A stretch of 64,000 nt of DNA from a virus. Its lineage: Duplodnaviria > Caudoviricetes. Position numbers and translations under genes: made by a program. The DNA is taken from IMG/VR virus record IMGVR_UViG_3300024322_000001; one strand, 5' to 3'. The notes below the pieces were generated by a model, which saw only the letters and a list, made by a program, of their open reading frames with translations, did no database searches and had not been told where the DNA came from. Numbering within the stretch: the stretch's first letter is position 1; every line of letters begins with the position of its first letter. Below, piece by piece: positions 1-23,935 of the stretch.

Positions 1-658
1 TGTTCATTGCTGCTGCAAGGTGTTGCCCAAATGAGTCCATAAGTACACGTTTCTTAGATAACCCTATTAATATAGCTATACTTCTATAACCATCCATAGC
101 TGCTAATGTATCAGGATATTCATACTGATCCTTTCTTTTTATATGAACAATTGAATAATCATTCTTATAATGCTGTACTAGGCTGTTTACTGTTATTTGT
201 GGAATATCTCTAGTCCAGGCGTATTTATATCCTTGTTGTTGTGGACCACCATTTGGCTGAATAACCATTACTGGTTTATCTGTTTTATAGAATGGAGAAT
301 AATATTCCTTTTCAGGTTCTGTTAAGTAGATTTGAGGCTGTTCGAAATTATAAGTAAGTCCGTAGATCCTACACCACGTCTTTAAGAGGTGTTCTTTTTC
401 AGTTAAAAATGAAGTATTACGGTACGGGTCTTCTACAAAAAGCTTACAGTCTTGATCTTTTACATACTTTAAGTACGCACCATTCATCTGCTCTATTCTG
501 TAACATTCATTAATAAGTGGATTATTAAGAAAGACATCAGGGTAAGCAGATACTACTACTATATGTGCGTTTTTATAGCGTTTTCTTATCACTTTAACTA
601 CTGCCGTAGCCATAATGCTTTTGCCTAGACCGCCGTCTATTTGAAATATGATATTCAT
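1..658 (-). CDS. GT9/heptosyltransferase-like glycosyltransferase (3'-truncated by window edge; not in ORF track)
   Basis: Hand translation from ATG at 658: MNIIFQIDGGLGKSIMATAVV...QPNGG...MDSFGQHLAAAMN. GGLG(D/K) start and DSxxxHLAAA are GT9-like motifs; frame stays open to base 1. Confidence 0.7.
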   Translation of the reverse strand, partial: MNIIFQIDGGLGKSIMATAVVKVIRKRYKNAHIVVVSAYPDVFLNNPLINECYRIEQMNGAYLKYVKDQDCKLFVEDPYRNTSFLTEKEHLLKTWCRIYGLTYNFEQPQIYLTEPEKEYYSPFYKTDKPVMVIQPNGGPQQQGYKYAWTRDIPQITVNSLVQHYKNDYSIVHIKRKDQYEYPDTLAAMDGYRSIAILIGLSKKRVLMDSFGQHLAAAMN

Positions 659-694
659 AAAACTTATTTAATTATAACTAATTTTAACTCTTTA

Positions 695-1003
695 CTACCA
701 AGGTGTACCGGTTGCTGTAGTTTCAGCTGCTATAAGTAGCTTATTGTTGTTGATAGATTCTACCAATTCAGCTTCAATTGCTGCTTTATCAACATTTGAG
801 TCTACCCAACCTAGTACATTACCCTCTGATAAGTCATCATAAGCAATAAATCCATCGTCAGATGCTGCACCTGTTAGTGTAAATTCTCCTATTTTTCTAG
901 CAGAGAAATCACCGTCGTTTGATTCGCATCCGTAAGTTACTTTAGTAACTACTCCATCTGCTTTGAGTCTTTCAAGATCGTATATTTTCCAAGTGTGTGT
1001 CAT
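695..1003 (-). CDS. Small tail-fibre-associated protein (paralog of 6547..6843)
   Basis: xWxIxxLxR...DG.V..V.Y...FI.[YF]xDLxxxxVLGW...xP[WF] pattern shared with 6547..6843; this type is common beside fibre genes of aquatic phages. Confidence 0.5.
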   Translation of the reverse strand: MTHTWKIYDLERLKADGVVTKVTYGCESNDGDFSARKIGEFTLTGAASDDGFIAYDDLSEGNVLGWVDSNVDKAAIEAELVESINNNKLLIAAETTATGTPW

Positions 1004-1024
1004 TGTAAGTGTGTTTTAATTTAT

Positions 1025-1032
1025 TATAAATA
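1025..1032 (-). promoter_or_regulatory. TATTTATA putative phage late-promoter motif
   Basis: One of 13 exact intergenic copies, always on the coding strand just upstream of a start codon. Confidence 0.6.
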
Positions 1033-1034
1033 TG

Positions 1035-1235
1035 CTATTTTTTTAATTTAGTTGATTTTACCCATAGTCTTTCAAATGAAAAGTAGCCTACTGTTTTTAT
1101 GACAGTATCTATGCTCCCAATAGCTAACCCGAATTTCCAATTACCGCTTACTATCCAGCCAGTAAGTATAGTTATCGATGTAGCTATAACTCTCCAAATT
1201 AAAGTCTTAACTATTGTTTCTTTATAACTTGCCAT
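1035..1235 (-). CDS. DUF2061-like small membrane protein
   Basis: KTLIWRVIAT...IDTVIKTVGYFSFERLW matches the DUF2061 pattern (KTxxWRxxxT ... YyxhERxW); the family is often linked to sulfate-activation genes. Confidence 0.7.
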   Translation of the reverse strand: MASYKETIVKTLIWRVIATSITILTGWIVSGNWKFGLAIGSIDTVIKTVGYFSFERLWVKSTKLKK

Positions 1236-1620
1236 CTTTTTTCATTTGTTCTCTAATCTTAGTAGCAGATATATTTTTTACTTCTTCAGGTGGGCAATGT
1301 TCTATAACGTCATATCCTACTCCTCTTCCTATATTGATTGATTCAATATCCGGTACGATAGTACATTTTACTCTACCTTGCTCTATCAAATCTTTTAATT
1401 CACGTTCTAAGTTAGTTAATACCTCCTCAGCAGTCCAAGGGTTTTTTTCGTCTGGTGGTATCTCTCTAATGGCTATCCATACGTTCTTACCTTCTTCTAA
1501 TCTTTGATCAATAAGCCATCTATGACCTGCATGCCAAGGTTGCCATCTTCCAATATACATTGAGTATTTATTCTCATTGAATGAGGACTGGAATGCTGCT
1601 TGTGCTAAATACTTTTTCAT
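1222..1620 (-). CDS. HUP-fold (cytidylyltransferase-like) nucleotidyltransferase; candidate minimal ATP sulfurylase
   Basis: GRWQPWHAGH (HxGH motif) and C-terminal ISATKIR; operonic with APS kinase. Confidence 0.7.
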   Translation of the reverse strand: MKKYLAQAAFQSSFNENKYSMYIGRWQPWHAGHRWLIDQRLEEGKNVWIAIREIPPDEKNPWTAEEVLTNLERELKDLIEQGRVKCTIVPDIESINIGRGVGYDVIEHCPPEEVKNISATKIREQMKKDGKL

Positions 1621-1955
1621 ATACCTTTATCTCTTTCTAAATTTATTGCAATAGCCCGTTCTCCAGGTTTCTTTGGATCCATATCATTGATTAAATAACG
1701 AGGGCCCCTTTCAATACCCATAATTAACCTATGGTACGGTACTTCATTTTCATATAATTCTATTTCAGTATGCATCCTAAGGTATTCAGGACGAGCTGTA
1801 GTTAAAATTATCATATGACCTTCAACTGAAGCTTTGTCTAAATATTCTATAGTAGATTTTATTCCTTCAGCTTTTGTTGTCTCATATGTTTCAAATTTAC
1901 GGTATTTGAATATAGTACCATCTATATCACAAAAGTATGTATTTTTTTTCTCCAT
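1617..1955 (-). CDS. Capless HAD-superfamily phosphatase
   Basis: FCDIDGTI motif I, LTTAR motif II, LIND motif IV. Confidence 0.75.
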   Translation of the reverse strand: MEKKNTYFCDIDGTIFKYRKFETYETTKAEGIKSTIEYLDKASVEGHMIILTTARPEYLRMHTEIELYENEVPYHRLIMGIERGPRYLINDMDPKKPGERAIAINLERDKGI

Positions 1956-1956
1956 A

Positions 1957-2454
1957 TTAGTTATCTAATTGATAATCTGAAGGTGGTAATTCATTTAGTA
2001 AAGACCCTTCAGGGTATTTTTTAGGTAAATTATTGATTATCTTTTGTAAAGATTCTTCAGGTGTATCGTCTGTAGTATCTATATCAATAAAATTACCTTG
2101 AGGGGCAATATACGCAATTGCTTTCCAATGGTCACGTTCTCTTGCTTCTGTTGTGTGAACATATATTTCTTTAATATTATCACCTAAAAGGGTTTTGAAA
2201 TCTTCTCTTTGATCCAAATAAGGTGCTACTAAAGAAACTATAACATCATTTCCTTGATTGTGTAGATAGTGAGCAATACGTTGAGCTGTACCTACATTTT
2301 CAACTCTACCTTTAATAGAGTAGTCTTTATTAGAGAATAATTCTCTCATATCATCTCCATCTATTCTAAAGGCATTAGGTGTGTAACGCTCTTGCAATAA
2401 ATCTCCTAAAATTGTTTTGCCAGCACATGGTTGGCCAGTTAACCAGTATATCAT
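1957..2454 (-). CDS. cysC: Adenylyl-sulfate (APS) kinase
   Basis: WLTGQPCAGKT P-loop, IDGDDMR, DYSxxGRxEN, VIVSLVAPY...R, EIYV: CysC signatures. Confidence 0.85.
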   Translation of the reverse strand: MIYWLTGQPCAGKTILGDLLQERYTPNAFRIDGDDMRELFSNKDYSIKGRVENVGTAQRIAHYLHNQGNDVIVSLVAPYLDQREDFKTLLGDNIKEIYVHTTEARERDHWKAIAYIAPQGNFIDIDTTDDTPEESLQKIINNLPKKYPEGSLLNELPPSDYQLDN

Positions 2455-2460
2455 ATTATC

Positions 2461-2491
2461 AATATAAGAATTATTTTTGAATTATACAACT
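2461..2491 (-). promoter_or_regulatory. Host-type (Bacteroidetes sigma70-like) promoter upstream of cysC
   Basis: Coding strand AGTTG-N20-TATATT; identical architecture at 6470, 46879 and 52063. Confidence 0.6.
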
Positions 2492-3807
2492 ATATCTCCT
2501 ACCTTAATTAACCAGCTCCCATCACAAAAAGTTTTGGTTGGTACTATATTAGTAGGACCATATCCTCCTATAAAGCCTTCTTTATTCATTGCAGGGAGAA
2601 TTGATTCAATTAATTTTTTAACATCTTGTCTTTTTCTATTATTAATATAGGTAAAGAATATATCTGAGAAGCTATCTATAATTTCTTCCGGAAGATTTGT
2701 AAGGTGGTTGACATTATTAAAACTACTTGTATTGTTGCTATAGGCAATTTTAATATCTTCCCAACTTAAATTATTCTTAATATTAAACTCGTCTTCACCT
2801 ACATACGAATCGACAGTGTATATGTTTTTAAACAGACCGCTACATCCGAAGAAAAAAGTTGACTCTCCGGTATGACTGTTTATTTCAATCATTTTAGAAT
2901 TTTCATCTGTAAAATTACCTATATGCTTTAGTAGATCTGATAGACCGAAGAAGCTATCTCTGTTAAATTTTTGTCGTCCGAAATTATACTTCTCTAATAC
3001 TATTTCAACATGCTGATCAATAATATCTTTTGGGTGTTTAATGTACTGAGCTATGCTCTTATTTATTACATTTCCTTCACTATCAAAAGAAATACCTATC
3101 TTACCGCCGCTTTCTCTATAATCGTTATAGTATGTATCAGAATCTGCATTTGCAGCATCTGCAATATCTGATTTTTGTCTTACTAGACTGTTAGAAAGGT
3201 TAATTATATTATGAGTATTGTAGAAAGTTTCTATATATACATCTGCAGCATACTTAACCGGTATACAGTTATCAGAAAGAGTCTTAATCATTTGCTTTGT
3301 AACTCCGTAGCAATGTGCACCGTTAAAATTAGTCCTGTATCTAGGAATTACAAAATTTTTAGATAGTATTATTCCATGTGATTGTTCAGTTTTTTTCCCG
3401 TACTGTACTATATCCCAGTCGATATCGTTCTGTTCTTTTAGTATTTCCTTGTATATAGGTGTTAGCTTGCTATTCTCTATAAAGGGAGTTACAAAGAAAA
3501 TATCGTCTTCTAGAAAAAGTGCATTTTCAACTCCATCCTTTAATGCTTGATCCCAAGCTTTTTTATGTGATAATGCGCAAGCGAAGATACCTGTAGTCAG
3601 CATACCAGTTGGATCAAAAAACGAACTCCCTACTAGACCTTGTTTTTGTAATTCTACTGTTGTTATTTCCTTACCGTCTACAGCTTCAATAAAAGTAAAA
3701 TCAATTTCAGGATTTTCCTTAATTAATATATCTCTTCTATCTTTTCTACGTTTTAAATTTATAACGTATATTTTATCAAATCCTAAAGTACTATTTTTTA
3801 AACTCAT
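2482..3807 (-). CDS. GT25-family glycosyltransferase fused to a degenerate class I SAM methyltransferase-like domain
   Basis: KIYVINLKRRKDRR, EAVDG, ACALSH..AW, LFLEDD are GT25 motifs. The C-terminal MIEINSHTGEST...TVDSY...GFIGG resembles Methyltransf_24. Confidence 0.75.
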   Translation of the reverse strand: MSLKNSTLGFDKIYVINLKRRKDRRDILIKENPEIDFTFIEAVDGKEITTVELQKQGLVGSSFFDPTGMLTTGIFACALSHKKAWDQALKDGVENALFLEDDIFFVTPFIENSKLTPIYKEILKEQNDIDWDIVQYGKKTEQSHGIILSKNFVIPRYRTNFNGAHCYGVTKQMIKTLSDNCIPVKYAADVYIETFYNTHNIINLSNSLVRQKSDIADAANADSDTYYNDYRESGGKIGISFDSEGNVINKSIAQYIKHPKDIIDQHVEIVLEKYNFGRQKFNRDSFFGLSDLLKHIGNFTDENSKMIEINSHTGESTFFFGCSGLFKNIYTVDSYVGEDEFNIKNNLSWEDIKIAYSNNTSSFNNVNHLTNLPEEIIDSFSDIFFTYINNRKRQDVKKLIESILPAMNKEGFIGGYGPTNIVPTKTFCDGSWLIKVGDIVV

Positions 3808-3808
3808 A

Positions 3809-4843
3809 TTATAACTCTCTAATTAGATTCTCATACTTAGAGTATATATTTTCATTACTTAACTCCTTTAAGTTACTTTCTTGGTCTGTAAGTAGTCTTT
3901 TCAGTATATCTAGTTTTGTTTTATGAAAAATATCTAAGGTATATTCTATTTGTTCAGGTTGATTAGAGATAACATATGGATAATTCTTTAAATACTCTAA
4001 TGCAGCGGAGTCTCTTCCTATTATAGGTACTAATCCGTTTAATAGACTCTTAAATGTATAGTAATCGAAGGTATCGTATACTGGGGTATATAGATATGCA
4101 GAATATTTCTTGAAATACTTATTTTCTGAACGTAGTCTTGCTTTAAAAGTAAATTTTGGTATAGTCTGTGTAACGTTGTTAATAAGAAATTGATTAAGAA
4201 AATCCGTTCTTCCGTGAATACCGTAATAGTCTAAACTTAAATTTTCATTCTTCCATATTGTATTTGCAGATATATGAATTCCATTAGCATATGACGGTAC
4301 TCCATTGAAAGTAAAATTTGTACCTTTAGTAACGTTGTCTAAATTTACTTTTAAACTTTTCTCACTACCTAGAGGCGGTGGTATAACTACTTTTTTAATT
4401 CCATCGGGAACTTTATAATAATCTTCAAATAGTTCCTTATCTCTCTTACTAAAGAATACAAATGCATCAGAATGTTTATAGTATAGGGTATTCTGCTTAT
4501 CATTAGATAGAGCTACAAATCCTTCCGAAAAAGAAGGTGCAAATTTCTCTAGACATTCAAGATTTAATTTTCTATGAACTTCTGGTATTGTGTCTATAAT
4601 AAATATTTTAGGAATCGTGACTTCCCTTAGAAACTCATGATACAGCCCTACACTACTAACTTTGTAATCAAAGCTAATAATTAAATGCGAGTAATTCTTA
4701 TTAATAGTATACTGAGCATTTACGTCCCTAAAGCTAAACGTATCTGCTTCAGTTATACCTATAGCTTTATAGATACTAGTAAAAATATTAGTTTCGTTTA
4801 TTAACCCTTTATTTTCATAATTTGTGACTACACATAACTTCAT
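3809..4843 (-). CDS. Divergent GT-B (GT4-like) glycosyltransferase
   Basis: SDAFVFFS, VVIPPP, YLYTPVYDTFDYYTFKSLLNGLVPII resemble the GT4 C-terminal motif region. Start MKLCVV at 4843 chosen to avoid overlap. Confidence 0.5.
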   Translation of the reverse strand: MKLCVVTNYENKGLINETNIFTSIYKAIGITEADTFSFRDVNAQYTINKNYSHLIISFDYKVSSVGLYHEFLREVTIPKIFIIDTIPEVHRKLNLECLEKFAPSFSEGFVALSNDKQNTLYYKHSDAFVFFSKRDKELFEDYYKVPDGIKKVVIPPPLGSEKSLKVNLDNVTKGTNFTFNGVPSYANGIHISANTIWKNENLSLDYYGIHGRTDFLNQFLINNVTQTIPKFTFKARLRSENKYFKKYSAYLYTPVYDTFDYYTFKSLLNGLVPIIGRDSAALEYLKNYPYVISNQPEQIEYTLDIFHKTKLDILKRLLTDQESNLKELSNENIYSKYENLIREL

Positions 4844-4856
4844 CTTACTTGCTGTA

Positions 4857-5600
4857 TTAAATTCCATCCCAGTTTTCATTTTCAGGTGATAGATGCACAC
4901 AGTAGCTATCTAAACATATAACCTGGTAGAATATTTTAGAAAATATCCAATCATCGTGGCCTGCATTTTTAGACATAGAAGGGTATAGGTGGTGTAAATC
5001 GGGGTATACATTTAATAGAGATGGCAAATGAAATAGTTGAAAATAACCATACCCTTTAAACTTCTGTACGATTTCGTCTGTTTTACTAAAATATTGCTGT
5101 GGTATGAATGGGTCAAAATCCTCTTCTTCGTTGACGTTGACTCTTCCCATCGTGTATAGGTTTAATGCTGAGAAGGGTTCGTCTAAATACTCTTCATATA
5201 AACGGTAATAACCTGTTCTTTCCATGTGTTCTGTTTCAACACATTTCAATTTTCTTAACCCTCTAATTTTTATTCTATTAGTCTCTTCATCAACAGGGAA
5301 AGCATCACTAAAGTTATCCGGTAGTAGTACGTCTGCGTCAATATGCAGATACCAATCGTTAGTGTACCCTAATAAATCAAATGCTTCGTTAATGGCTTCA
5401 CCTTTTGAAAATTGACGGTTATAAAGCTTTTCAGAAAATATATACTCTAGGTTATTATCTTCACACAGTTTTATAGTTTCAGTATCTTGCTCGGTAGTAA
5501 CTATAACCCAACGTTTAAAAAAACGATTATTTGCTATACAATACTTAAATAAATGTGCGTAGTTTACACACACAGTAACTGCGTATATATCTATATTCAT
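4857..5600 (-). CDS. GT-A (GT2-like) glycosyltransferase
   Basis: AVTVCVNY, FSKGEAINEAF, WYLHIDADVLLP (DxD), GYFQLF, DWIF. Confidence 0.7.
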   Translation of the reverse strand: MNIDIYAVTVCVNYAHLFKYCIANNRFFKRWVIVTTEQDTETIKLCEDNNLEYIFSEKLYNRQFSKGEAINEAFDLLGYTNDWYLHIDADVLLPDNFSDAFPVDEETNRIKIRGLRKLKCVETEHMERTGYYRLYEEYLDEPFSALNLYTMGRVNVNEEEDFDPFIPQQYFSKTDEIVQKFKGYGYFQLFHLPSLLNVYPDLHHLYPSMSKNAGHDDWIFSKIFYQVICLDSYCVHLSPENENWDGI

Positions 5601-5635
5601 AACTAATTTTTCAATAAACTTTTTTTACTGTACTA

Positions 5636-6463
5636 CTAGTACGTATTCCACTTAGAGTAGTCTAGATCAGGATAAAGTGCTTTGAGTTCATTAACACTAT
5701 CTTTAAAATAAGCCTTTAAAAATTGTTCAGAAGCTGTATCGATAGTTGTGTCGTAAGATGCAGAATGTATATCTCTATATTCTTTATCAAGTGCTAACTC
5801 ATCTACTCCTAAAAAGCTAAACATTTTATTATATTCAACTGCAGGATTAGCTTTGATTTCTTCCTGTATAGCTACATATACGTTTTCCGATCCAAAAGTT
5901 GCTCTATATTTCTTTAAGTTTTCTACGTATTTACTTCTAAGTAGAATAGAGTTTTTAGCTTTATCGTTAGAAACCTGTTCTGTACTTTCGTTGAAGGACT
6001 TTCCTTTAAATCTCAATGCAAAATTCGAATTTGGTCTTTGTATATGATTCCAATGGCTAAAACTTCTAGTGATAGGATCTCTAAGTATAACTATAATCTT
6101 AGGTGTTCCTAAAGTTAATGCCATGTTTTTAGCTGTGCTTTCTTGACCTTTTTCATGTAGGTAGAAATAATTTGGTGATGCTTCTCCTATTGCTTTGGTT
6201 GGTCTTGGAAAATAAGACTCGTATAAATCTCTACCTAAATTAAAATTATGTTCTTTATTAAAAAAGTCCATTTCTTTATTAGTCTCTTCACTTAAGCCTC
6301 CTACAAAGTCAGAAGGTTTATAATTATAATGTGCGTTTACTTTTTCCTTCCAGTAAGGCGTTACACAGAATACATCTTCGTGTAAATTTAAATTTATAGC
6401 AGCAGCAGAGGTGCTACCTTTCATTGCTCCTACTATTATAAAGTTTGGTGTGTTCTTTTTCAT
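5636..6463 (-). CDS. PAPS-dependent sulfotransferase (glycan sulfotransferase-like)
   Basis: PNFIIVGAMKGSTS (5'-phosphosulfate loop), KEMDFF, GEASPNY, IIVILRDPITRSFS (3'-phosphate motif), FLGV. Confidence 0.9.
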   Translation of the reverse strand: MKKNTPNFIIVGAMKGSTSAAAINLNLHEDVFCVTPYWKEKVNAHYNYKPSDFVGGLSEETNKEMDFFNKEHNFNLGRDLYESYFPRPTKAIGEASPNYFYLHEKGQESTAKNMALTLGTPKIIVILRDPITRSFSHWNHIQRPNSNFALRFKGKSFNESTEQVSNDKAKNSILLRSKYVENLKKYRATFGSENVYVAIQEEIKANPAVEYNKMFSFLGVDELALDKEYRDIHSASYDTTIDTASEQFLKAYFKDSVNELKALYPDLDYSKWNTY

Positions 6464-6469
6464 AATTAT

Positions 6470-6500
6470 AATATAATACTTTTCTTTTTAATAAACAACT
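6470..6500 (-). promoter_or_regulatory. Host-type promoter upstream of sulfotransferase
   Basis: AGTTG-N20-TATATT ending 6 nt before the ATG. Confidence 0.6.
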
Positions 6501-6525
6501 TTTAGAGTAATTTTTTTCTATATAA

Positions 6526-6533
6526 TATAAATA
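6526..6533 (-). promoter_or_regulatory. TATTTATA putative late-promoter motif
   Basis: Exact intergenic copy upstream of the sulfotransferase/GT operon. Confidence 0.6.
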
Positions 6534-6546
6534 GATAAAAATAACA

Positions 6547-6843
6547 TTAAAAAGGAGTTTCTTGAATTGATTGACTTGTTATTAATTTATTAATAGAAGA
6601 TGATAATTCTGTTTGGATAGAAGGAATATCAAAACTCCCTGTTATCCACCCTAAAACTATATCTTGAGTTAAATCTTCGAAAGGTATAAACCCGTCTTCA
6701 GATGCGGTCCCTGATATTTCTATGATGCCCCATTTTCGAGCTACAGATCCACTAACGATAGTATCATATGTGTATTCTACATCGTATACTAATCCGTCAG
6801 ATGCGTTTCTAGTTAAGTTATTTATGTGCCAGTTAAATTCCAT
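6547..6843 (-). CDS. Small tail-fibre-associated protein (paralog of 695..1003)
   Basis: MEFNWHINNLTR...GFIPFEDLTQDIVLGW...TPF; preceded by TATTTATA at 6848..6855. Confidence 0.5.
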   Translation of the reverse strand: MEFNWHINNLTRNASDGLVYDVEYTYDTIVSGSVARKWGIIEISGTASEDGFIPFEDLTQDIVLGWITGSFDIPSIQTELSSSINKLITSQSIQETPF

Positions 6844-6855
6844 ATTTTATAAATA

Positions 6856-7563
6856 TTATGATGTTACGTCGAGGTATACTTTAAATGTTCCTACGTTACT
6901 ACCGTAAGAAACAAAACTAAATTCTAAAGTATCAACTAATGCTGTGATTGGGCTTCGTAACCAGAAGTTATAGCCCAACATACTTCCTCCACTAGTTTCT
7001 GCATATACATGATAACCAGTTGATTCAACTGTTGTATCTACTGATGTACCTGTTCCTGAAGATGGAGGAATACTATTAGTTACATTCCACCTACCCCCAC
7101 TTGTACCTGTTCCTAACGAAGTCCAGCTTGCTCCACTATATGTACTGGTATTTGTTGTTGTTGTCTGCCATCCTGTTCTACTTTGAGATAAATCATAAGT
7201 AGTATTACCTAAATATATTGTTGCACCGATTTGAAAATCTCCTCGGTAAGAAGTACTCGCTGTACCGTTAGTATACTGTATTACTAATCTACCGTTTTTA
7301 CCATCGTAATCACTCAACGTAGAAATTTCACCATCACCTTGGAATATATCCCAAGAGGTAGTTGATGATAAATTTTGTGTATATAAAGCTGAGGATAATC
7401 CTAAAGGGATACTTGAGTACCCGTAAAATTCGGATACAGCATCTGGTGTTGATTTCCCAGCTGTACTGCTCATACTACGTAAAGATACGTTTGTACTCGC
7501 GGCACTTAGTTCTGTTCTAATTTGGCTAAAACTAAGCGGATTTCCTGCAGAGGGTAGAGCCAT
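6856..7563 (-). CDS. Fibre-tip adhesin with C-terminal MAM-like domain
   Basis: N-terminal MALPSAG.LSFSQIRTEL...SEFYG is typical of proteins following S74 fibres. C-terminal W...PSSGTG...GYHVYAETS...LRSP...LEF...YGSNVGTFKVY follows the MAM consensus. Confidence 0.55.
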   Translation of the reverse strand: MALPSAGNPLSFSQIRTELSAASTNVSLRSMSSTAGKSTPDAVSEFYGYSSIPLGLSSALYTQNLSSTTSWDIFQGDGEISTLSDYDGKNGRLVIQYTNGTASTSYRGDFQIGATIYLGNTTYDLSQSRTGWQTTTTNTSTYSGASWTSLGTGTSGGRWNVTNSIPPSSGTGTSVDTTVESTGYHVYAETSGGSMLGYNFWLRSPITALVDTLEFSFVSYGSNVGTFKVYLDVTS

Positions 7564-10500
7564 TATACTTTAGATTTAAGTTCGTCGATTTGTTTTTGCT
7601 GTTCTTTAATTGCTTCAATTAATAAAGGAACAATTTTTTCATAGTTAACAGCTTTATATCCATTATCTCTTGTAGTAACAGCTTCTGGTAATATTGATTC
7701 TATTTCTTGGGCTATAACACCTACATCTCTACCTGTATTACCATGTATTGTTTGTATTTCTTCTTTTGATAAAGATTTCCAGTCAAATGTATTACCTGAT
7801 ACTCCTATTACTTTACATAAAGCATTTTCAATAGGTTGAATATTTTCTTTTAATCTTCTATCGGAAGTAGCAAATGCTACAACATCGTTTGTCGCATCAA
7901 TTCTACCGGTTGTTGTATTAAGTGTTGTAGTACCCCCTACTTGTAAATGACATGCTACTGTGGCATTGTTCATGTAAGTAGTTTTTGTTGTAGTAGAAGC
8001 TAAACAACACCCTATAGCGTGAGAATAGTCGTGTTTAACACAGTTGCCTCGCCCGACTGTTGAAGCATAATCTGAGTGACATATATTGTTCATACAGCCT
8101 CCTAGAATAGAGGAATAATTAGAATTAAGGCAAACATTGTTGTACTCACCTCCTATTATGGAAGAAGCATATCCGGTGGCACGATTACAAAATCCTCCAC
8201 CGACAAAAGCAAGTGCTTGATCTTTAATTAAATTACATTTTCCGCCACCTATAGTACTAGCCAAGGCATTGCATATTCTGTTACAACATCCACCTGCAAT
8301 TGTAGCGCCACTGCAATTGCTTCCGCATATACAGTTTTGGATACCACCTCCTATTGTGTTCTGGGAACCATAGCTACAAGTATTTATAACGTTAGTAGAT
8401 CCTCCTGCTATTGTATTGCTAATATATCCGCATATTACATTACTATTTCCACCACCTATGGTATGGTAATTTCCAGCAGTAGAATTTTTAATTTGGTTAG
8501 CATTACCTCCCAGGATTGAACTCAAGTTTTGACATAATATACTATTACTACATCCTCCTGCTATGGTACCGGAATTAGACACTAAGATACAGTTAGATCC
8601 ACCTGAGCCTATAAATGCGAAGCAGGCTCCATCTATTTGATTTCGACAACCTGCTCCTATTATTGCATAGGCAGATCTTGACTCACTTTTAGGGTAATTG
8701 CAAGCTGTATCTAATATCTTGTTTTCATATCCTCCTACAATTGTTTGAATAGTTCCGAATTCCATTTTATTGTAACAACCTCCTCCTATAAAGTTTGCAC
8801 TACACATAGAACCGTTTCCTTTCACGCAGTTTAAAGTACCTCCTACAATTGTATTGTAGTAACCACCACCGGTGGAGATGCAGTTACAATTACCAGATGC
8901 GACTATACTTTGGTTACCGTTTATATAGTTTAAATTACCTCCGACTATGTTACATGAACCGAATGTTGAATTACCAGATGTTTTGTTAAGGAATACATTT
9001 TTATAATTAGCTACCACACAAATAGCAGAATCAAATGGTTCTGTACCTCCATATTCAAAGGTACATGAAGCAACTTTAACAGCTATTGTTTCATCATCAT
9101 CAGTCATTATCCCTAACTCCCCGCCGAAGTTATCATCACTGATATCGATTTTCCCTAAACCAGCATTATTGCATCCAAATTGACTACGATCTGCGAGAAA
9201 GTAGTTTCCTAGTGAATCTACACAGAAAGACTGACCGTCGTAAGTTAATCCTGATTCTCCTATAATACTAGTTGTCCCACCAGCAGTTAGTATCCTATTA
9301 TTAACTCCACCGGACATTGTAACTGTACCAGTACAAGTAGTAAACGCCGTTGAATTAAATGCATTTGAACCTAATTCTCTAGTTCCAACATCTCCACTAC
9401 TGTTAATCATTAATGAAGTTGCTTCTGAATTTTGTGCGGGTTGTAAGGCTATATTCAGCGCAGCAGTCACCAATTTCGTACCATCCCAAATTAATTTGTT
9501 GGTATTACCAAATGATGTAGTTCCGTTATAGAATGGAATATATGTAGATGTACCGTTACCAGTTAATGTACCGGTACAAGTAGTAAATCCGTAAGTGTTA
9601 TCCCAATTGGTATTACCATCTGTTATATACCCACATCCGTTAGCTATTTGATTGTTATTATTTGGTATATCAGAACTTATAGCAATTGTACCAGTTTGAT
9701 CAGGTAAAGTATATGTTCTATCTCCAGTTAATAGTCCTGCTAATAAAGTACCTTCGTATGCATCTGCGGCATTTCCTTCGAATACAACACCATTTGATGT
9801 CGATACAGTTTCTACATTATTAGTTGTTGTTGTTCCTGTTACAACTAAATCACCAGGTATAGTTACTGTATCGGTTGAATCACCAATTTGAACTGCGTTT
9901 GATCCAAAACCACCTGCTAAACGTATTTTTAAATTAGTAATAGAAACATCATCCACTTTCGTGTTACCTGCCAATGCTGTAGTAGATGTTGTACCTAATG
10001 TTAAGTTAGAAGTACCAGTACATGTAGTAAACGCTGTTGAATTAAATGCATTTGAACCTAATTCTCTAGTTCCAACTACATTTGAACCATTTATCATTAC
10101 AGCAGTTGATGCTGATGCTTGATTGGCTAGACCTGTAAGAGATAGAGTAGAGCTAATTGTATTAGTTTCTACATCTAAATTATTTACAAAAGTATAGTTA
10201 GATTTATCTGCTGTTATATCAGAACCTAAAATATGTACATTGGATTTGTCTGCACTAGAGTTATTAAAACCACCTGCTATACTACTAGAAGGGAGTATTA
10301 AACAGTTATTTTTACCTCCACCTATAAAGTTGTGGAGAGAACTTATATAGTTATCTTCACCTGTTACAATACCACTAAAACATGAGCTTAGGGTTATATT
10401 ATTACTACAACCACCTCCTATAAAACTACATGCTCCTGAGCCTGTGTTTAGCATACCGCCTACTATAGTAGCAAAATTACCGTTAGCACAGTTTTTACAC

Positions 10501-11534
10501 CCTCCTACAACAATTGTATGTCCACCATCGGTACCGCCGTTATAAGAAATATTGCAAGAACCTCCAGCTATAACATGCCCCTGATTAGTTGAAGAAACTA
10601 TACAGTTATTATACCCTCCTCCTATAACTGTATATCCTCCTGAGCCATGTATACTGTTATACCTACCGCCTCCAATAAAAGCATTAGTACTTGAGCATAT
10701 TTCGCTATCACGGCCTCCTGCTATTGAAGAAAAATCATCATATTGGATATTATGTCCTGAACCTATTTGTATATTTGTACTACCTGATATACCACCAGTT
10801 ACTGTTAAGCCTATACCTGGTGTGGTCATTGAATTAAATGAAGGGGGTAGAACATACAAACCGTGGGGAGAAAAGTTTGCAGTATCTATAAATACGTTAT
10901 TACATTCTTGTTTAAATGAAATATTACCTTTAGTTTGTCCTGAAGTAGCACAAGCTATTCTACCGTAAATAGCAGCATATAGTTTATTTGCAGCTGTACT
11001 TTTGCCCCAAAATTGAGCTGTTCCTAAAGTATCATTATCCGCTGGGGAAGCTGAATTTCTACAGAAAGTTAAATCTGGTGCAGAAGAAGCACCTGCGTCT
11101 GTAGAAGTTAATCTTAATAGATCGCCTGTACCTGTGTATGTTAAATCTAGGGTAGTACCATCATATGTAAAATTAGATGAACCATCTAAACTAGTAGTAC
11201 CGTTCCAAGTAGTTACTTGATTATTTACACCTGTGCCAGTTACAGTACCAGTACAAGTAGTAAACGCCGTTGAATTAAATGCGTTTGAACCTAAAGAATG
11301 ACGCTCTATCTGACCAGAAGTACTATTTCTTGTTAAAAAGTCTATGCTTGTATTAGCAGTCGAGTCTAGTGATGGTTCTGTACCTAAGGTAACTAGTCTC
11401 TCTAAATAGGTATCTCTTCCTAATTTTGATTCTCTTGAGTATATATCCTGAGCAGAATATATTCCTCCTGAAGATGTTATTTCGTTTAGTACCGCAGTAC
11501 TCCCTGAGGTAATTACTTTTTTCCAGTTTGGCAT
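7563..11534 (-). CDS. Long tail fibre with Cys-rich GG beta-helix repeats and C-terminal peptidase S74 chaperone
   Basis: SDRRLKENI...GVIAQE...AVNYEKIVPLLIEAIKE; many IGGGxxN repeats. Confidence 0.85.
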   Translation of the reverse strand: MPNWKKVITSGSTAVLNEITSSGGIYSAQDIYSRESKLGRDTYLERLVTLGTEPSLDSTANTSIDFLTRNSTSGQIERHSLGSNAFNSTAFTTCTGTVTGTGVNNQVTTWNGTTSLDGSSNFTYDGTTLDLTYTGTGDLLRLTSTDAGASSAPDLTFCRNSASPADNDTLGTAQFWGKSTAANKLYAAIYGRIACATSGQTKGNISFKQECNNVFIDTANFSPHGLYVLPPSFNSMTTPGIGLTVTGGISGSTNIQIGSGHNIQYDDFSSIAGGRDSEICSSTNAFIGGGRYNSIHGSGGYTVIGGGYNNCIVSSTNQGHVIAGGSCNISYNGGTDGGHTIVVGGCKNCANGNFATIVGGMLNTGSGACSFIGGGCSNNITLSSCFSGIVTGEDNYISSLHNFIGGGKNNCLILPSSSIAGGFNNSSADKSNVHILGSDITADKSNYTFVNNLDVETNTISSTLSLTGLANQASASTAVMINGSNVVGTRELGSNAFNSTAFTTCTGTSNLTLGTTSTTALAGNTKVDDVSITNLKIRLAGGFGSNAVQIGDSTDTVTIPGDLVVTGTTTTNNVETVSTSNGVVFEGNAADAYEGTLLAGLLTGDRTYTLPDQTGTIAISSDIPNNNNQIANGCGYITDGNTNWDNTYGFTTCTGTLTGNGTSTYIPFYNGTTSFGNTNKLIWDGTKLVTAALNIALQPAQNSEATSLMINSSGDVGTRELGSNAFNSTAFTTCTGTVTMSGGVNNRILTAGGTTSIIGESGLTYDGQSFCVDSLGNYFLADRSQFGCNNAGLGKIDISDDNFGGELGIMTDDDETIAVKVASCTFEYGGTEPFDSAICVVANYKNVFLNKTSGNSTFGSCNIVGGNLNYINGNQSIVASGNCNCISTGGGYYNTIVGGTLNCVKGNGSMCSANFIGGGCYNKMEFGTIQTIVGGYENKILDTACNYPKSESRSAYAIIGAGCRNQIDGACFAFIGSGGSNCILVSNSGTIAGGCSNSILCQNLSSILGGNANQIKNSTAGNYHTIGGGNSNVICGYISNTIAGGSTNVINTCSYGSQNTIGGGIQNCICGSNCSGATIAGGCCNRICNALASTIGGGKCNLIKDQALAFVGGGFCNRATGYASSIIGGEYNNVCLNSNYSSILGGCMNNICHSDYASTVGRGNCVKHDYSHAIGCCLASTTTKTTYMNNATVACHLQVGGTTTLNTTTGRIDATNDVVAFATSDRRLKENIQPIENALCKVIGVSGNTFDWKSLSKEEIQTIHGNTGRDVGVIAQEIESILPEAVTTRDNGYKAVNYEKIVPLLIEAIKEQQKQIDELKSKV
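9325..11294. repeat. Three near-identical 50-65 bp direct repeats (LGSNAFNSTAFTTCTGT) at about 9325-9389, 10012-10076 and 11245-11294
   Basis: gtaccagtaca(a/t)gtagtaaacgc(c/t)gttgaattaaatgc(a/g)tttgaacctaa seen three times. Confidence 0.9.
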
Positions 11535-22351: not shown

Positions 22352-23935
22352 TTATACCTGAGCTAAATCAGATACGTAAATCTTACCGTAGAATTCTGGA
22401 CGAATCATCTTCTTAGCATAACGAGTCATCAATCCTTTACGTGGAGTAAAGGTATCTGGATCGTATACTAGAGGAGTCATCATTAATGGTACGTAAGGAG
22501 CATATACTGCACCTGCTTCCAAGAACTGTCCACCTCTATAACCAGTTAAGATTACGTTTTCAGTCATGTAAGGGTTTTTGTATACTTGGAATCTGTTCGC
22601 TAAAGAACCGATTTTCTGTACGCCCATTGCAAATTGAGCTTTATCACCGTCAGTTTGTGCAGCATATCCAGGAATTGATTCTAGGATTGTTGCAACAGAA
22701 GGAGAACATACTACGAAATTTGCTCCACCTCTTAACGTTTTTTGGTGAATCTTGTTAGAAACTTTCTGTAGTTTAGTACCTAAAGTTTGGAACCACTGAC
22801 CTTGAGTGTTGTAGAAATCAGAAGTACCTGTAGACCAAGCTGATCCATCCCATACTTTATTGTTTTCTGCAGACCACTTTTCAGTTGTAGCAGCACCTTG
22901 GATTAACATATCAAGTAATTCAAGATCGATCTCCATAGAGATGTACTCAGATAACATTGAAGTCAATTCTGCTTCAGCGTCAATTGAATGATAAGCATTC
23001 AAATCTTGAGCGAATTCTGGAGTCCACTGTGCTTTTAACTTTCTAGTCTTAGCAACAATCGCCTCAGAAGCTAACTGTACGTCGATTTCTGGAATAGAAA
23101 CTGAAGGACTTACATTGTTACCGTCTGCTCCAGAAGCTTCAAAGTCACCTCTTGTGTTATCACCTGGTTGTACGTGGTATTTGATTTTCTTGTTACCTGA
23201 AGAACCAGCGTCTCCAGTTGCAACAACGAATACGATGTCTGAACCATCTACTCTTGTGTACTGTCCGTAAGAAGCAATACCGTCAAGTTGGAAAGCTCTT
23301 ACACCTTCTAAATCTGCATCAGCAGGAGCTGCTAATGTTACAGTATCGAAAGCAGTTAAGTCTAAACTTGCATCGTATCCTACATCTGCTAATGAAGCAG
23401 TTGCTTGTACAGTTGCAGAAATGTTTCCTGAAGTTTTCTCGTTAATAGAGTAACCGAACTGTCCAGCGCCGTAAAGACCACCAGCAACGTCAGTATCTAC
23501 TGCCATTTTAGATGATGCTTCAGTTACGTTACCGTACATGTTGTCTCCGTCACCTCTACCGTTTACAGCAGAACCATATTTAAAGTCTAGATAAAATACT
23601 AGACCTGAAGGTAGGTTCATTGGTTGTACACTTACAAAGTCTTGCGCTACGATTTGAGCGAATACTTTTCTTACAAGTGGTAAAGCAACACCAGCCCACT
23701 GCTCACCTGCACCAGCTGTAAAGCCAGCACCTGTTCCAGAAGCACCTGTGTTGTTTGCTTCAGCTACGATTTGTTTTGCTTGGTTTTCAAGTACCATTGC
23801 CATGTTGTTTTTGGCTTTTTCGTCTTGAATTCCTTCCAACAAACCAGAAGCTGACCACTTATCAGCCAAACGCGCTGCGTCTGCCTGTAGGCTCTTAAAA
23901 TTGTTAGAGCTTTCTAATAATTGGTTTAATTCCAT
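22352..23935 (-). CDS. gp23: Major capsid protein (T4 gp23-like)
   Basis: VQPMNLPSGLVF, AKTRKLKAQWTPEFAQDLNAYHSIDAEAEL, YAPYVPL, FTPRKGLMTRY. Confidence 0.95.
   Translation of the reverse strand: MELNQLLESSNNFKSLQADAARLADKWSASGLLEGIQDEKAKNNMAMVLENQAKQIVAEANNTGASGTGAGFTAGAGEQWAGVALPLVRKVFAQIVAQDFVSVQPMNLPSGLVFYLDFKYGSAVNGRGDGDNMYGNVTEASSKMAVDTDVAGGLYGAGQFGYSINEKTSGNISATVQATASLADVGYDASLDLTAFDTVTLAAPADADLEGVRAFQLDGIASYGQYTRVDGSDIVFVVATGDAGSSGNKKIKYHVQPGDNTRGDFEASGADGNNVSPSVSIPEIDVQLASEAIVAKTRKLKAQWTPEFAQDLNAYHSIDAEAELTSMLSEYISMEIDLELLDMLIQGAATTEKWSAENNKVWDGSAWSTGTSDFYNTQGQWFQTLGTKLQKVSNKIHQKTLRGGANFVVCSPSVATILESIPGYAAQTDGDKAQFAMGVQKIGSLANRFQVYKNPYMTENVILTGYRGGQFLEAGAVYAPYVPLMMTPLVYDPDTFTPRKGLMTRYAKKMIRPEFYGKIYVSDLAQV

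Follow-up and report, generated by a model that had tools for sequence, protein, structure and literature searches.

Gene layout of the module

The window, by which we mean the entire 64-kb stretch of DNA from a marine phage that was analyzed, contains four small minus-strand genes in a head-to-tail arrangement that either overlap or are separated by a single base. The first gene (positions 1957–2454) encodes an APS-kinase-like P-loop protein of 165 amino acids (Pfam APS_kinase, 2.6e-14) of the phage type with a deleted lid. It is followed by the genes for a minimal, capless HAD phosphatase of 112 amino acids with DIDGT, TTAR, and NDMD motifs (1617–1955), a nucleotidyltransferase (NT) of 132 amino acids with HxGH and ISxTxxR motifs (1222–1620; PF01467, CTP_transf_like, 1.4e-5), and a DUF2061 small membrane protein of 66 amino acids (1035–1235; PF09834, 4.6e-18). 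All four open reading frames had been proposed in the first-pass annotation and were found to be present, as were the two motifs quoted there for the NT (GRWQPWHAGH at residues 24–33 and ISATKIR at residues 117–123). The tight coupling it described was borne out by the overlaps, which are read from the sequence as 4 nt (ATGA) at the HAD/NT junction and 14 nt at the NT/DUF2061 junction, but the gap given as 2 nt between the kinase and HAD genes is one base, located between the TAA stop codon of the former and the ATG of the latter. A scan of the coding strand found no terminator-like sites within the module, and promoter-like sites were no more common than in shuffled sequence.

The surroundings of the module are a glycosyltransferase island. 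The gene for a GT25-family glycosyltransferase with a C-terminal extension (2482–3807, minus strand; Pfam Glyco_transf_25, 7.5e-23) lies upstream of the kinase gene, with 27 nt between them, and is part of the glycan island. A sulfotransferase of 275 amino acids is encoded at 5636–6463 on the minus strand (Pfam Sulfotransfer_1, 1.4e-7, and Sulfotransfer_3, 6e-4), and it retains the PAPS-binding motifs GAMKGSTS and RDPITRSFS. A blastn search of positions 1–8000 against cultured phages returned tail-fibre fragments only. The major head protein shares 70% identity with its counterpart in Flavobacterium phage immuto. In agreement with the earlier statement that sat, cysD, and cysN are missing from the window, no homologues of Sat, CysD, or CysN were found by phmmer, using real proteins as queries, among the open reading frames of at least 60 amino acids in all six frames of the 64 kb. 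The sole match to these queries was the kinase, through the fused APS-kinase parts of the queries.

Of 80 related viral loci, 76 contain both the kinase and the NT genes, and the order kinase-HAD-NT-DUF2061 was the same in all 36 viral loci that were found via the HAD and were long enough to be judged. The four-gene arrangement is therefore not due to chance. DUF2061 accompanies the NT in 51 of the 80 viral loci.

Properties of the four proteins

The kinase scores 53.9 bits against Pfam APS_kinase (gathering score of 21.1) and 50.5 bits against the NCBIfam apsK model TIGR00455, for which the equivalog cut-off is 138.7. Its best solved relatives are APS kinases. The P-loop, DGD, R37, Y-S, G-R, and N53 are retained, and residues G7, G12, K13, D32-G33-D34, R37, and Y45-S46, together with R50, N53, P78, R83, and R105, align with those of the canonical APS kinases. 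The residues that are invariant across the canonical and phage APS kinases are thus present in the protein from the window. The lid (KGxYxKAR...FTGI) is affected by a deletion of approximately 20 residues, and this deletion is found in other phage copies as well.

The HAD phosphatase gives only weak Pfam matches, to HAD_PNKP and Hydrolase_3, that fall just below the cut-offs. Residues D10-I-D12-G-T14, T52-T53, and N90-D91-M-D93 are conserved across 15 homologues. The closest fold is that of AfhF from phage HY126 (9iqw, Z = 11.5), followed by 1xpj (Z = 10.7) and the phosphatase domain of T4 Pnkp (5uj0, Z = 9.3). AfhF has been reported to be an arabinose-1,5-bisphosphate phosphatase (PMC13326640). 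The HAD from the window shares with AfhF and the 3′-phosphatase domain of T4 Pnkp a capless fold of about 115–125 residues and the DxDGT motif, at an identity of only 14–20%. AfhF is found next to an AfhE-type kinase/pyrophosphorylase (PMC13326640), whereas the HAD adjoins an APS-kinase-like gene and the NT. It lies between these two genes in 36 of 36 viral loci, and it occurs in only 13 of the 80 viral NT loci and in none of the cellular ones. The HAD is dedicated to the module, with PAP, PPi, or a sugar phosphate as candidate substrates.

The DUF2061 protein matches its profile over positions 1–51 of 52 with 65.8 bits (cut-off of 23.1). DUF2061 genes of the Flavobacteriaceae were located in cysH-cysD or cysC-cysD operons in each of the 20 loci inspected, and the protein from the window is closest to the tandem form that is linked to cysC. 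DUF2061 is an accessory of sulfate-activation operons, and this tie is independent of the NT. The earlier proposal that DUF2061 moves sulfate or PAPS is pure conjecture. A search for longer DUF2061 fusions gave one uninformative protein.

PF01467 is the sole Pfam family reported for the NT, and no match to PF01747 (Sat) was obtained for this protein with Pfam; a marginal match to PF01747 (1.6e-4) was found in one of 39 longer relatives. A profile of the NT family did not match any of the Sat chains in the PDB at E values up to 10. The HxGH and ISxTxxR motifs (H30-A-G-H33 and I117-SATKIR123 in the NT) are found throughout the family, and H30, H33, and R123 show little or no variation among 29 members. 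The HxxH and ISxTxxR motifs are common to the whole superfamily and so do not discriminate for Sat. The QxRNP and GRDHAG loops, which are the sulfate/phosphosulfate loops of Sat, are absent from the NT, as is the PUA-like N-terminal domain of the Sat structures. The sequences GRWQP and GRGVGY are found in place of the two loops.

The first 80 or so residues of the NT are homologous to NadM/archaeal NMNAT (E ≈ 1e-12 with the profile), and in both profile and single-sequence searches these matches end at approximately residues 76–93. The unaligned half of NMNAT is the part that holds NMN. All of the NMNAT models, TIGR01527 and NF002243 among them, score the NT far below their cut-offs (32.7 bits versus 181.2 and 35.8 versus 127). 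An AF2 model of the NT (pLDDT of 87) resembles PPAT and NMNAT most closely (Z = 10.2), followed by Sat (Z = 7.9, over 116 residues of 1v47) and by HldC and TagD (Z = 6.4–7.9). Foldseek against the PDB returned NMNAT and PPAT only, with modest scores, and the similarity to Sat surfaced only in the exhaustive VIA search, so that the substrate cannot be read off the predicted fold. The likeness to Sat anticipated in the first-pass annotation does exist in the model, but PPAT and NMNAT are nearer. A predicted complex of the kinase and NT, computed without controls, scored 0.02, a value that carries no weight for or against an interaction.

The NT is not a shortened form of Sat: its sequence places its origin in the lineage of NadM and archaeal NMNAT, although it lies outside the Sat, CysD, and NMNAT families. 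The NT shares with NadM/archaeal NMNAT (TIGR01527, NF002243; 1f9a, 1ej2, 2qjo) the GRxQPxHxGH motif and, jointly with PPAT, the best fold match, but it is about 40 residues shorter and the C-terminal half is unaligned. The reaction proposed below is that of Sat, of bifunctional Sat-APS kinase, and of PAPS synthase (PF01747; 1v47, 2gks, 1x6v), and the NT resembles these proteins in its pairing or fusion with APS kinase, its HxxH fold class, and its C-terminal ISxTxxR-type motif. Unlike Sat, the NT is approximately one-third the size, has no PUA-like N-domain, and belongs to a family with conserved RD and GRxVGY motifs rather than QxRNP and GRDHAG. CysDN, which is composed of a PAPS_reduct-like ATP pyrophosphatase and a GTPase, also catalyzes the same reaction, and DUF2061 accompanies cysD in the Flavobacteriaceae as it accompanies the NT in phages. 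The NT is from an unrelated family, however, and the phage module is without a GTPase partner. No close homologue of the NT was found in cultured phages, and no description of such an enzyme was found in the literature on DUF2061, on novel or alternative ATP sulfurylases, or on phage PAPS pathways.

Gene context of the NT family

Fusion or adjacency of the NT family with APS kinase is seen in bacteria, archaea, and viruses. An APS_kinase domain was found in 28 of 39 longer representatives of the family (best 9.5e-69) in both domain orders, and seven of the fusions have full-length domains (1e-25 to 1e-56). A genome scan with a narrow alignment of the family gave 30 loci at which an NT was called, and at 26 of them it was fused or adjacent to the kinase. 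These loci represent Omnitrophota, Planctomycetota, Acidobacteriota, CPR, DPANN, Marinimicrobia, Chlamydiota, Pelagibacteraceae, Flavobacteriaceae, and Rhodospirillaceae. Nine of the ten cellular partner kinases that were tested pass the NCBIfam apsK equivalog cut-off.

Sulfotransferases are the commonest neighbors in cells within three genes of the NT (Sulfotransfer_3 in 10 and Sulfotransfer_1 in 5 of 142) and in viruses within five genes (7 each of 148 after dereplication). Examples include the arrangements Polysacc_synt, NT-APSK, sulfotransferase and Sulfotransfer_5, APSK, NT. The families for NAD salvage are not among the 25 commonest in either tally. In phages of Xylella and Stenotrophomonas, a fused kinase-NT is found among genes for DNA metabolism, and no sulfotransferase is annotated near it. 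Neither Sat nor CysD was found in 23 of 30 NT-bearing genomes, with Sat in 1 and CysD or a CysD-like protein in 6; the carriers are mostly incomplete MAGs and the complementarity is imperfect. In three viral genomes with an NT that are estimated to be 94–100% complete, neither Sat nor PAPS_reduct/CysD was detected.

Most SAR11, which are abundant ocean bacteria, are reported to be without an ATP sulfurylase (PMC10356861; PMC12636525), the enzyme being described as missing (PMC10356861) and the pathway as incomplete (PMC12636525). Among 101 genomes of the Pelagibacteraceae, we found the NT in 44, AprA in 37, and Sat in 4. Of the 37 genomes with AprA, 33 have the NT and 3 have Sat, and the odds ratio for the co-occurrence of NT and AprA is approximately 40 when shared ancestry is ignored. 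The NT is within 6 kb of aprA in 15 of the genomes, and in all six apr loci that were inspected it is located upstream of aprB-aprA and is co-directional with these genes. The order in the three simplest loci is NT, an unknown protein of 264 amino acids, AprB, and AprA, and in the one annotated locus a TauE-family gene then follows. The sat gene usually sits upstream of aprBA. In many SAR11 genomes, the NT and a more divergent kinase of 135 amino acids are encoded beside genes for Rieske, ECH, and CoA-binding proteins rather than apr. A role as PPAT/dephospho-CoA kinase, which was prompted by these CoA-related neighbors, was rejected, canonical CoaD being encoded elsewhere in 85 of the 101 genomes.

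Proposed function and alternatives

The gene context of the module points to APS chemistry. We propose that the 132-residue NT is probably a miniature ATP sulfurylase of a previously undescribed kind, and that the phage-borne unit probably supplies PAPS for the phage's own sulfotransferase, 3 kb away. The catalytic steps are assigned here through guilt by association. The NT would convert ATP and sulfate to APS and PPi, and the lid-less APS-kinase-like protein would phosphorylate the 3′-OH of APS to form PAPS, which would pull the unfavorable sulfurylase step forward. The HAD encoded between them would most likely remove a product, either PAP or PPi, and DUF2061 would serve as the membrane accessory that also travels with the cellular sulfate-activation operons. 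The sulfotransferase encoded 3 kb upstream would then use PAPS to modify a glycan made by the neighboring glycosyltransferases. The suggestion that the small enzyme makes APS for the kinase next to it is supported by the fusion or adjacency of the family with APS kinase, by the sulfotransferases nearby, by its location at aprBA in SAR11, and by the lack of Sat and CysD in most genomes that carry it. By established biochemistry, the sulfurylase step is the only nucleotidyl transfer in PAPS metabolism. Among the findings that count against a sulfurylase, the phage kinase is without a lid and falls far below the apsK cut-off, and the NT matches no Sat model by sequence and is closest to NMNAT and PPAT in both sequence and fold. 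The sugar-bisphosphate phosphatase fold of the HAD, the carriers that do have Sat or CysD-like genes, and the NT loci of Xylella and Stenotrophomonas phages and of many SAR11 that have other neighbors also weigh against it.

It is unlikely that the kinase, HAD, and NT instead constitute a nucleotide-sugar pathway serving the neighboring glycosyltransferases, in which a sugar phosphate would be converted to a bisphosphate by the kinase, to a sugar-1-phosphate by the HAD, and to an NDP-sugar by the NT. This possibility stays alive because the nearest fold to the HAD is that of a phage sugar-bisphosphate phosphatase, AfhF from HY126 (PMC13326640). Such a pathway would have its parallels in the heptose (HldE/GmhB/HldC) and arabinose (AfhE/AfhF) routes, the kinase-HAD-NT gene order and the location inside a glycosyltransferase island are consistent with it, and HldC and TagD are within the fold class of the NT. 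However, most of the NT-kinase units have no HAD, nine of the ten cellular partner kinases tested exceed the apsK cut-off, and the associations with aprBA, with DUF2061 and cys genes, and with sulfotransferases are left unexplained. We know of no sugar kinase in the APS-kinase family.

We consider it very unlikely that the NT has a role other than that of a sulfurylase in the metabolism of adenine nucleotides or of APS and PAPS, for example in a sulfate release resembling that of APS:phosphate adenylyltransferase, in the recycling of PAPS or APS, or as a noncatalytic partner of the kinase. The context identifies only APS or PAPS as the shared metabolite, and some carriers do have Sat or CysD-like genes, but the near-invariance of HxGH and ISxTxxR argues for a real transferase acting at the α-phosphate of ATP, and APS would otherwise lack a source in most carriers. 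That the NT is a small NMN/NaMN adenylyltransferase for NAD salvage or replenishment during infection, like NadR/NadM, is highly improbable: public pipelines give it the name NMNAT and its best relatives are of that kind, but the curated models reject it, the profile match ends at about residue 82, before the NMN-holding half, and the neighbors of the family are APS kinase (rather than ribosylnicotinamide kinase), sulfotransferases, and aprBA rather than NAD genes.

Returning to the sulfurylase, we think it reasonably likely that the NT family as a whole, with members of 115–135 residues, is a third and miniature class of ATP sulfurylase that arose from NMNAT-like ancestors and now occurs in phages, SAR11, Marinimicrobia, CPR bacteria, DPANN archaea, and others. 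Together with APS kinase it would form a two-domain mini PAPS synthase, and beside aprBA of SAR11 it would be the missing enzyme for the conversion of APS to sulfate and ATP. Sulfate assimilation, sulfation, and dissimilatory sulfate metabolism are all entered through ATP sulfurylase, and to our knowledge only Sat and CysDN are generally used for its annotation. If the proposal is true, a third and tiny type of sulfurylase would alter the interpretation of sulfur pathways in metagenomic data, and APS kinases and reductases that look like orphans would become components of full pathways in phages, in CPR and DPANN organisms with their tiny genomes, and in SAR11. A sulfurylase of 115–135 residues could also serve in the enzymatic regeneration of PAPS. 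Marine phages would, in addition, carry a self-sufficient supply of the sulfate donor for the sulfation of glycans.

The four-gene unit and its phage setting

With the open reading frames (ORFs) and junctions read directly, the four-gene minus-strand unit proposed by the first-pass annotation at positions 1035-2454 of the window is real. The ORF listing gives, in consecutive order, a kinase (165 aa, 1957-2454), a HAD protein (112 aa, 1617-1955), a nucleotidyltransferase (132 aa, 1222-1620; NT, also used here for its family), and a DUF2061 protein (66 aa, 1035-1235). The kinase and HAD genes are separated by a single base (TAA-t-ATG) rather than by the 2-nt gap claimed previously. The HAD and NT genes share an ATGA overlap, the NT and DUF2061 genes overlap by 14 nt, and no terminator-like site was found on the coding strand within the unit. 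A search of the window also bore out the claim that it contains no Sat, CysD, or CysN.

The only real relatives of the kinase are APS kinases (Pfam, 2.6e-14), and its best solved relatives are the Aquifex, Synechocystis-type, and archaeal enzymes. Aligned with canonical APS kinases, it retains the P-loop, DGD, Arg, Tyr-Ser, Arg, and Asn, and lacks ~20 lid residues (KGxYxKAR...FTGI). Its score of 50.5 bits is far short of the NCBIfam equivalog cut-off of 138.7 bits.

NT has more than 4000 relatives, found in metagenomes that are mostly marine. Among 80 IMG/VR loci, NT is accompanied by the kinase in 76, by DUF2061 in 51, and by the HAD protein in 13. A search seeded with the HAD protein returned 38 loci, and the order kinase-HAD-NT-DUF2061 was found in all 36 that were long enough for gene order to be judged.

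The window is dense in genes, which lie on one strand, with ~32% G+C and T4-like head, portal, and terminase genes. The major head protein (22352-23935) shares 53% identity with a Microcystis phage homologue and 70% with its counterpart in Flavobacterium phage vB_FspM_immuto; the latter identity suggests a host within the Flavobacteriia, with the Flavobacteriaceae as the likely lineage. The module sits in a glycan-modification island (2-658, 695-1003, and 2482-6463) that adjoins the tail-fibre genes. On the 5' side of the module are a GT25 glycosyltransferase, two ORFs without assignment, and a sulfotransferase in which both PAPS-binding motifs are conserved; the island also holds a DUF7936 gene and a 219-aa ORF, and 17 of 80 related loci have this ORF as well. 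In the islands of related phages, swapped-in genes encode carbamoyltransferases, 2OG oxygenases, FkbM methyltransferases, and pyruvyl transferases. The tail-fibre gene at 7563-11534 has short stretches in common with cyanophage long tail fibres.

Sequence and fold of the nucleotidyltransferase

The HxGH and ISxTxxR motifs of NT are those of the cytidylyltransferase-like superfamily, and public annotation labels the protein an NMNAT or a cytidyltransferase-like protein. Its sequence is nearest to NadM and archaeal NMNAT, with scores 3-5 times below the family cut-offs. The NT family profile matches NMNAT over the first ~80 residues only and matched no Sat; NT lies outside the Sat family. In an AlphaFold model (pLDDT 87), the nearest folds are PPAT and NMNAT (Z 10.2). 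The fold class shared with Sat, on which the first-pass proposal drew, was recovered (Thermus ATP sulfurylase, Z 7.9), but PPAT and NMNAT are closer, and the modeled fold is thus compatible with a sulfurylase without singling one out. Two conserved arginines, R52 (RD motif) and R99 (GRxVGY), are specific to the NT family, and two others, R25 and R123, are common to it and NMNAT. All four are candidate residues for the sulfate site.

Partners of NT in cells and viruses

An exhaustive search provided 1068 representatives of the NT family, of which 39 are longer proteins; 28 of these carry an APS_kinase domain and one a DUF2061 domain. The NT-kinase fusions occur in either domain order with full-length kinase halves, and nine of ten cellular partner kinases tested passed the apsK equivalog cut-off. 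A scan of species-representative genomes found NT spread over many bacterial and archaeal phyla; in 26 of the 30 loci with a callable NT gene, NT and the kinase are either fused or direct neighbors. The commonest family near NT, in cells and viruses alike, is the sulfotransferases. Examples are an operon of Polysacc_synt, NT-APSK, and sulfotransferase genes and a Marinimicrobia operon of Sulfotransfer_5, APSK, and NT, whose NT is very close to the phage protein.

Sat was found in one of 30 NT-carrier genomes and CysD above the cut-off in one, with CysD-like matches in five more; the one such match inspected lies within a cysH-like/cysD-like/cysN-like cluster. Neither Sat nor CysD or a CysD-like protein was found in 23 of the 30, many of these genomes being small or incomplete. 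Sat and PAPS_reduct/CysD are also absent from three NT-carrying viral genomes with estimated completeness of 94-100%, one of which has a sulfotransferase ~1 kb from the module.

PHROG 10255 is a kinase-NT fusion of Xylella and Stenotrophomonas phages (Salvo, locus L001, 4983-5729; DLP6, locus L002, 3638-4369). It is surrounded by genes for MazG, a topoisomerase, a ligase, and a helicase loader, and none of the flanking genes is annotated as a sulfotransferase. The kinase half of the fusion resembles the small-kinase type of SAR11 (DWDFS.EGR.RQ).

We sampled 101 genomes of the Pelagibacteraceae (SAR11). One of them, G161, is unpublished; it gave neither an NT match nor an above-cut-off match to AprA, and none of our conclusions depends on it. 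NT is present in 44 of the 101 genomes, AprA above the cut-off in 37, and Sat in 4. AprA was found in 33 genomes with NT and was absent from 11; among genomes lacking NT, the corresponding numbers are 4 and 53 (odds ratio ~40, ignoring kinship). NT is within 6 kb of aprA in 15 genomes, and in all six SAR11 loci inspected (L234-L239) it precedes aprB-aprA in the same orientation. This slot is usually taken by sat in other organisms. The annotated locus runs from a Cys/Met PLP enzyme, an MFS protein, and a TenA/PQQC-like protein to NT, followed by a 264-aa unknown protein, AprB, AprA, a 116-aa protein, and TauE; an example is L236, 1844-10190. The 264-aa protein is possibly the Apr membrane anchor. 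In some apr loci a 135-aa kinase is inserted ahead of NT.

A second arrangement, in complete SAR11 genomes (L226-L231), pairs NT with a divergent 135-aa kinase in which NAD replaces DGD and RQ replaces EN. The neighboring genes encode a Rieske oxygenase, enoyl-CoA hydratase, a CoA-binding protein, and dimethylglycine-dehydrogenase-like proteins. In SAR11 single-cell genomes, a barrel-only pyruvate kinase protein of ~330 aa adjoins APSK-NT (L111, 10337-11335; L115, 10840-11820); PF00224 occurs in 3 of 142 cellular neighbor proteins.

Proposed function and the link to sulfate activation

APS is the one metabolite common to APS kinase, APS reductase, PAPS-dependent sulfotransferases, and cys operons, and the sulfurylase step is the one nucleotidyl-transfer reaction around it. 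The most economical reading, which we consider probable, is that the members of the NT family are miniature ATP sulfurylases of an undescribed kind, forming APS, and that the phage sulfotransferase receives its PAPS from the window unit.

The HAD protein contains all four HAD motifs, and its fixed position inside the module suggests that it clears a pathway product, either PAP or PPi. The nearest fold to its model (pLDDT 73.5, last 29 residues uncertain) is AfhF of phage HY126 (Z 11.5), an arabinose-1,5-bisphosphate phosphatase (PMC13326640), followed by an uncharacterised Vibrio protein (Z 10.7) and the T4 Pnkp 3'-phosphatase (Z 9.3). The match to a sugar-bisphosphate phosphatase would also fit a nucleotide-sugar pathway for kinase, HAD, and NT, an alternative that we regard as improbable. 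A PPAT/dephospho-CoA-kinase pair, considered because of the enoyl-CoA hydratase and CoA-binding neighbors in some SAR11 genomes, was rejected, as a canonical CoaD is found elsewhere in 85 of the 101. A closely related phage encodes a second small HAD, a distant paralogue (33% identical; L003, 3567-3887), 4 kb from the module.

DUF2061 was found in 49 of 61 Flavobacteriaceae genomes, and sulfate-activation genes are immediately adjacent in the best 20 loci (L206-L225). The single-domain form precedes cysH-cysD: cysH adjoins it in 18 of 18 loci, and cysD follows in all 15 for which the 3-kb window reached that far. The tandem-domain form adjoins cysC in both of its loci among these 20, with cysD next in one, and the DUF2061 protein of the phage is most similar to this cysC-linked form. 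The fourth gene of the module is therefore tied to sulfate activation independently of NT. In the Flavobacteriaceae, cys operons thus regularly include DUF2061, which offers a clue to the function of a family listed as unknown.

Returning to the miniature sulfurylase, our literature searches found no published description of an enzyme of the NT type. What would be new is the type of enzyme for a known reaction, PAPS synthesis itself being known. If confirmed by assay, an NT sulfurylase would be potentially of great interest for the marine sulfur cycle.
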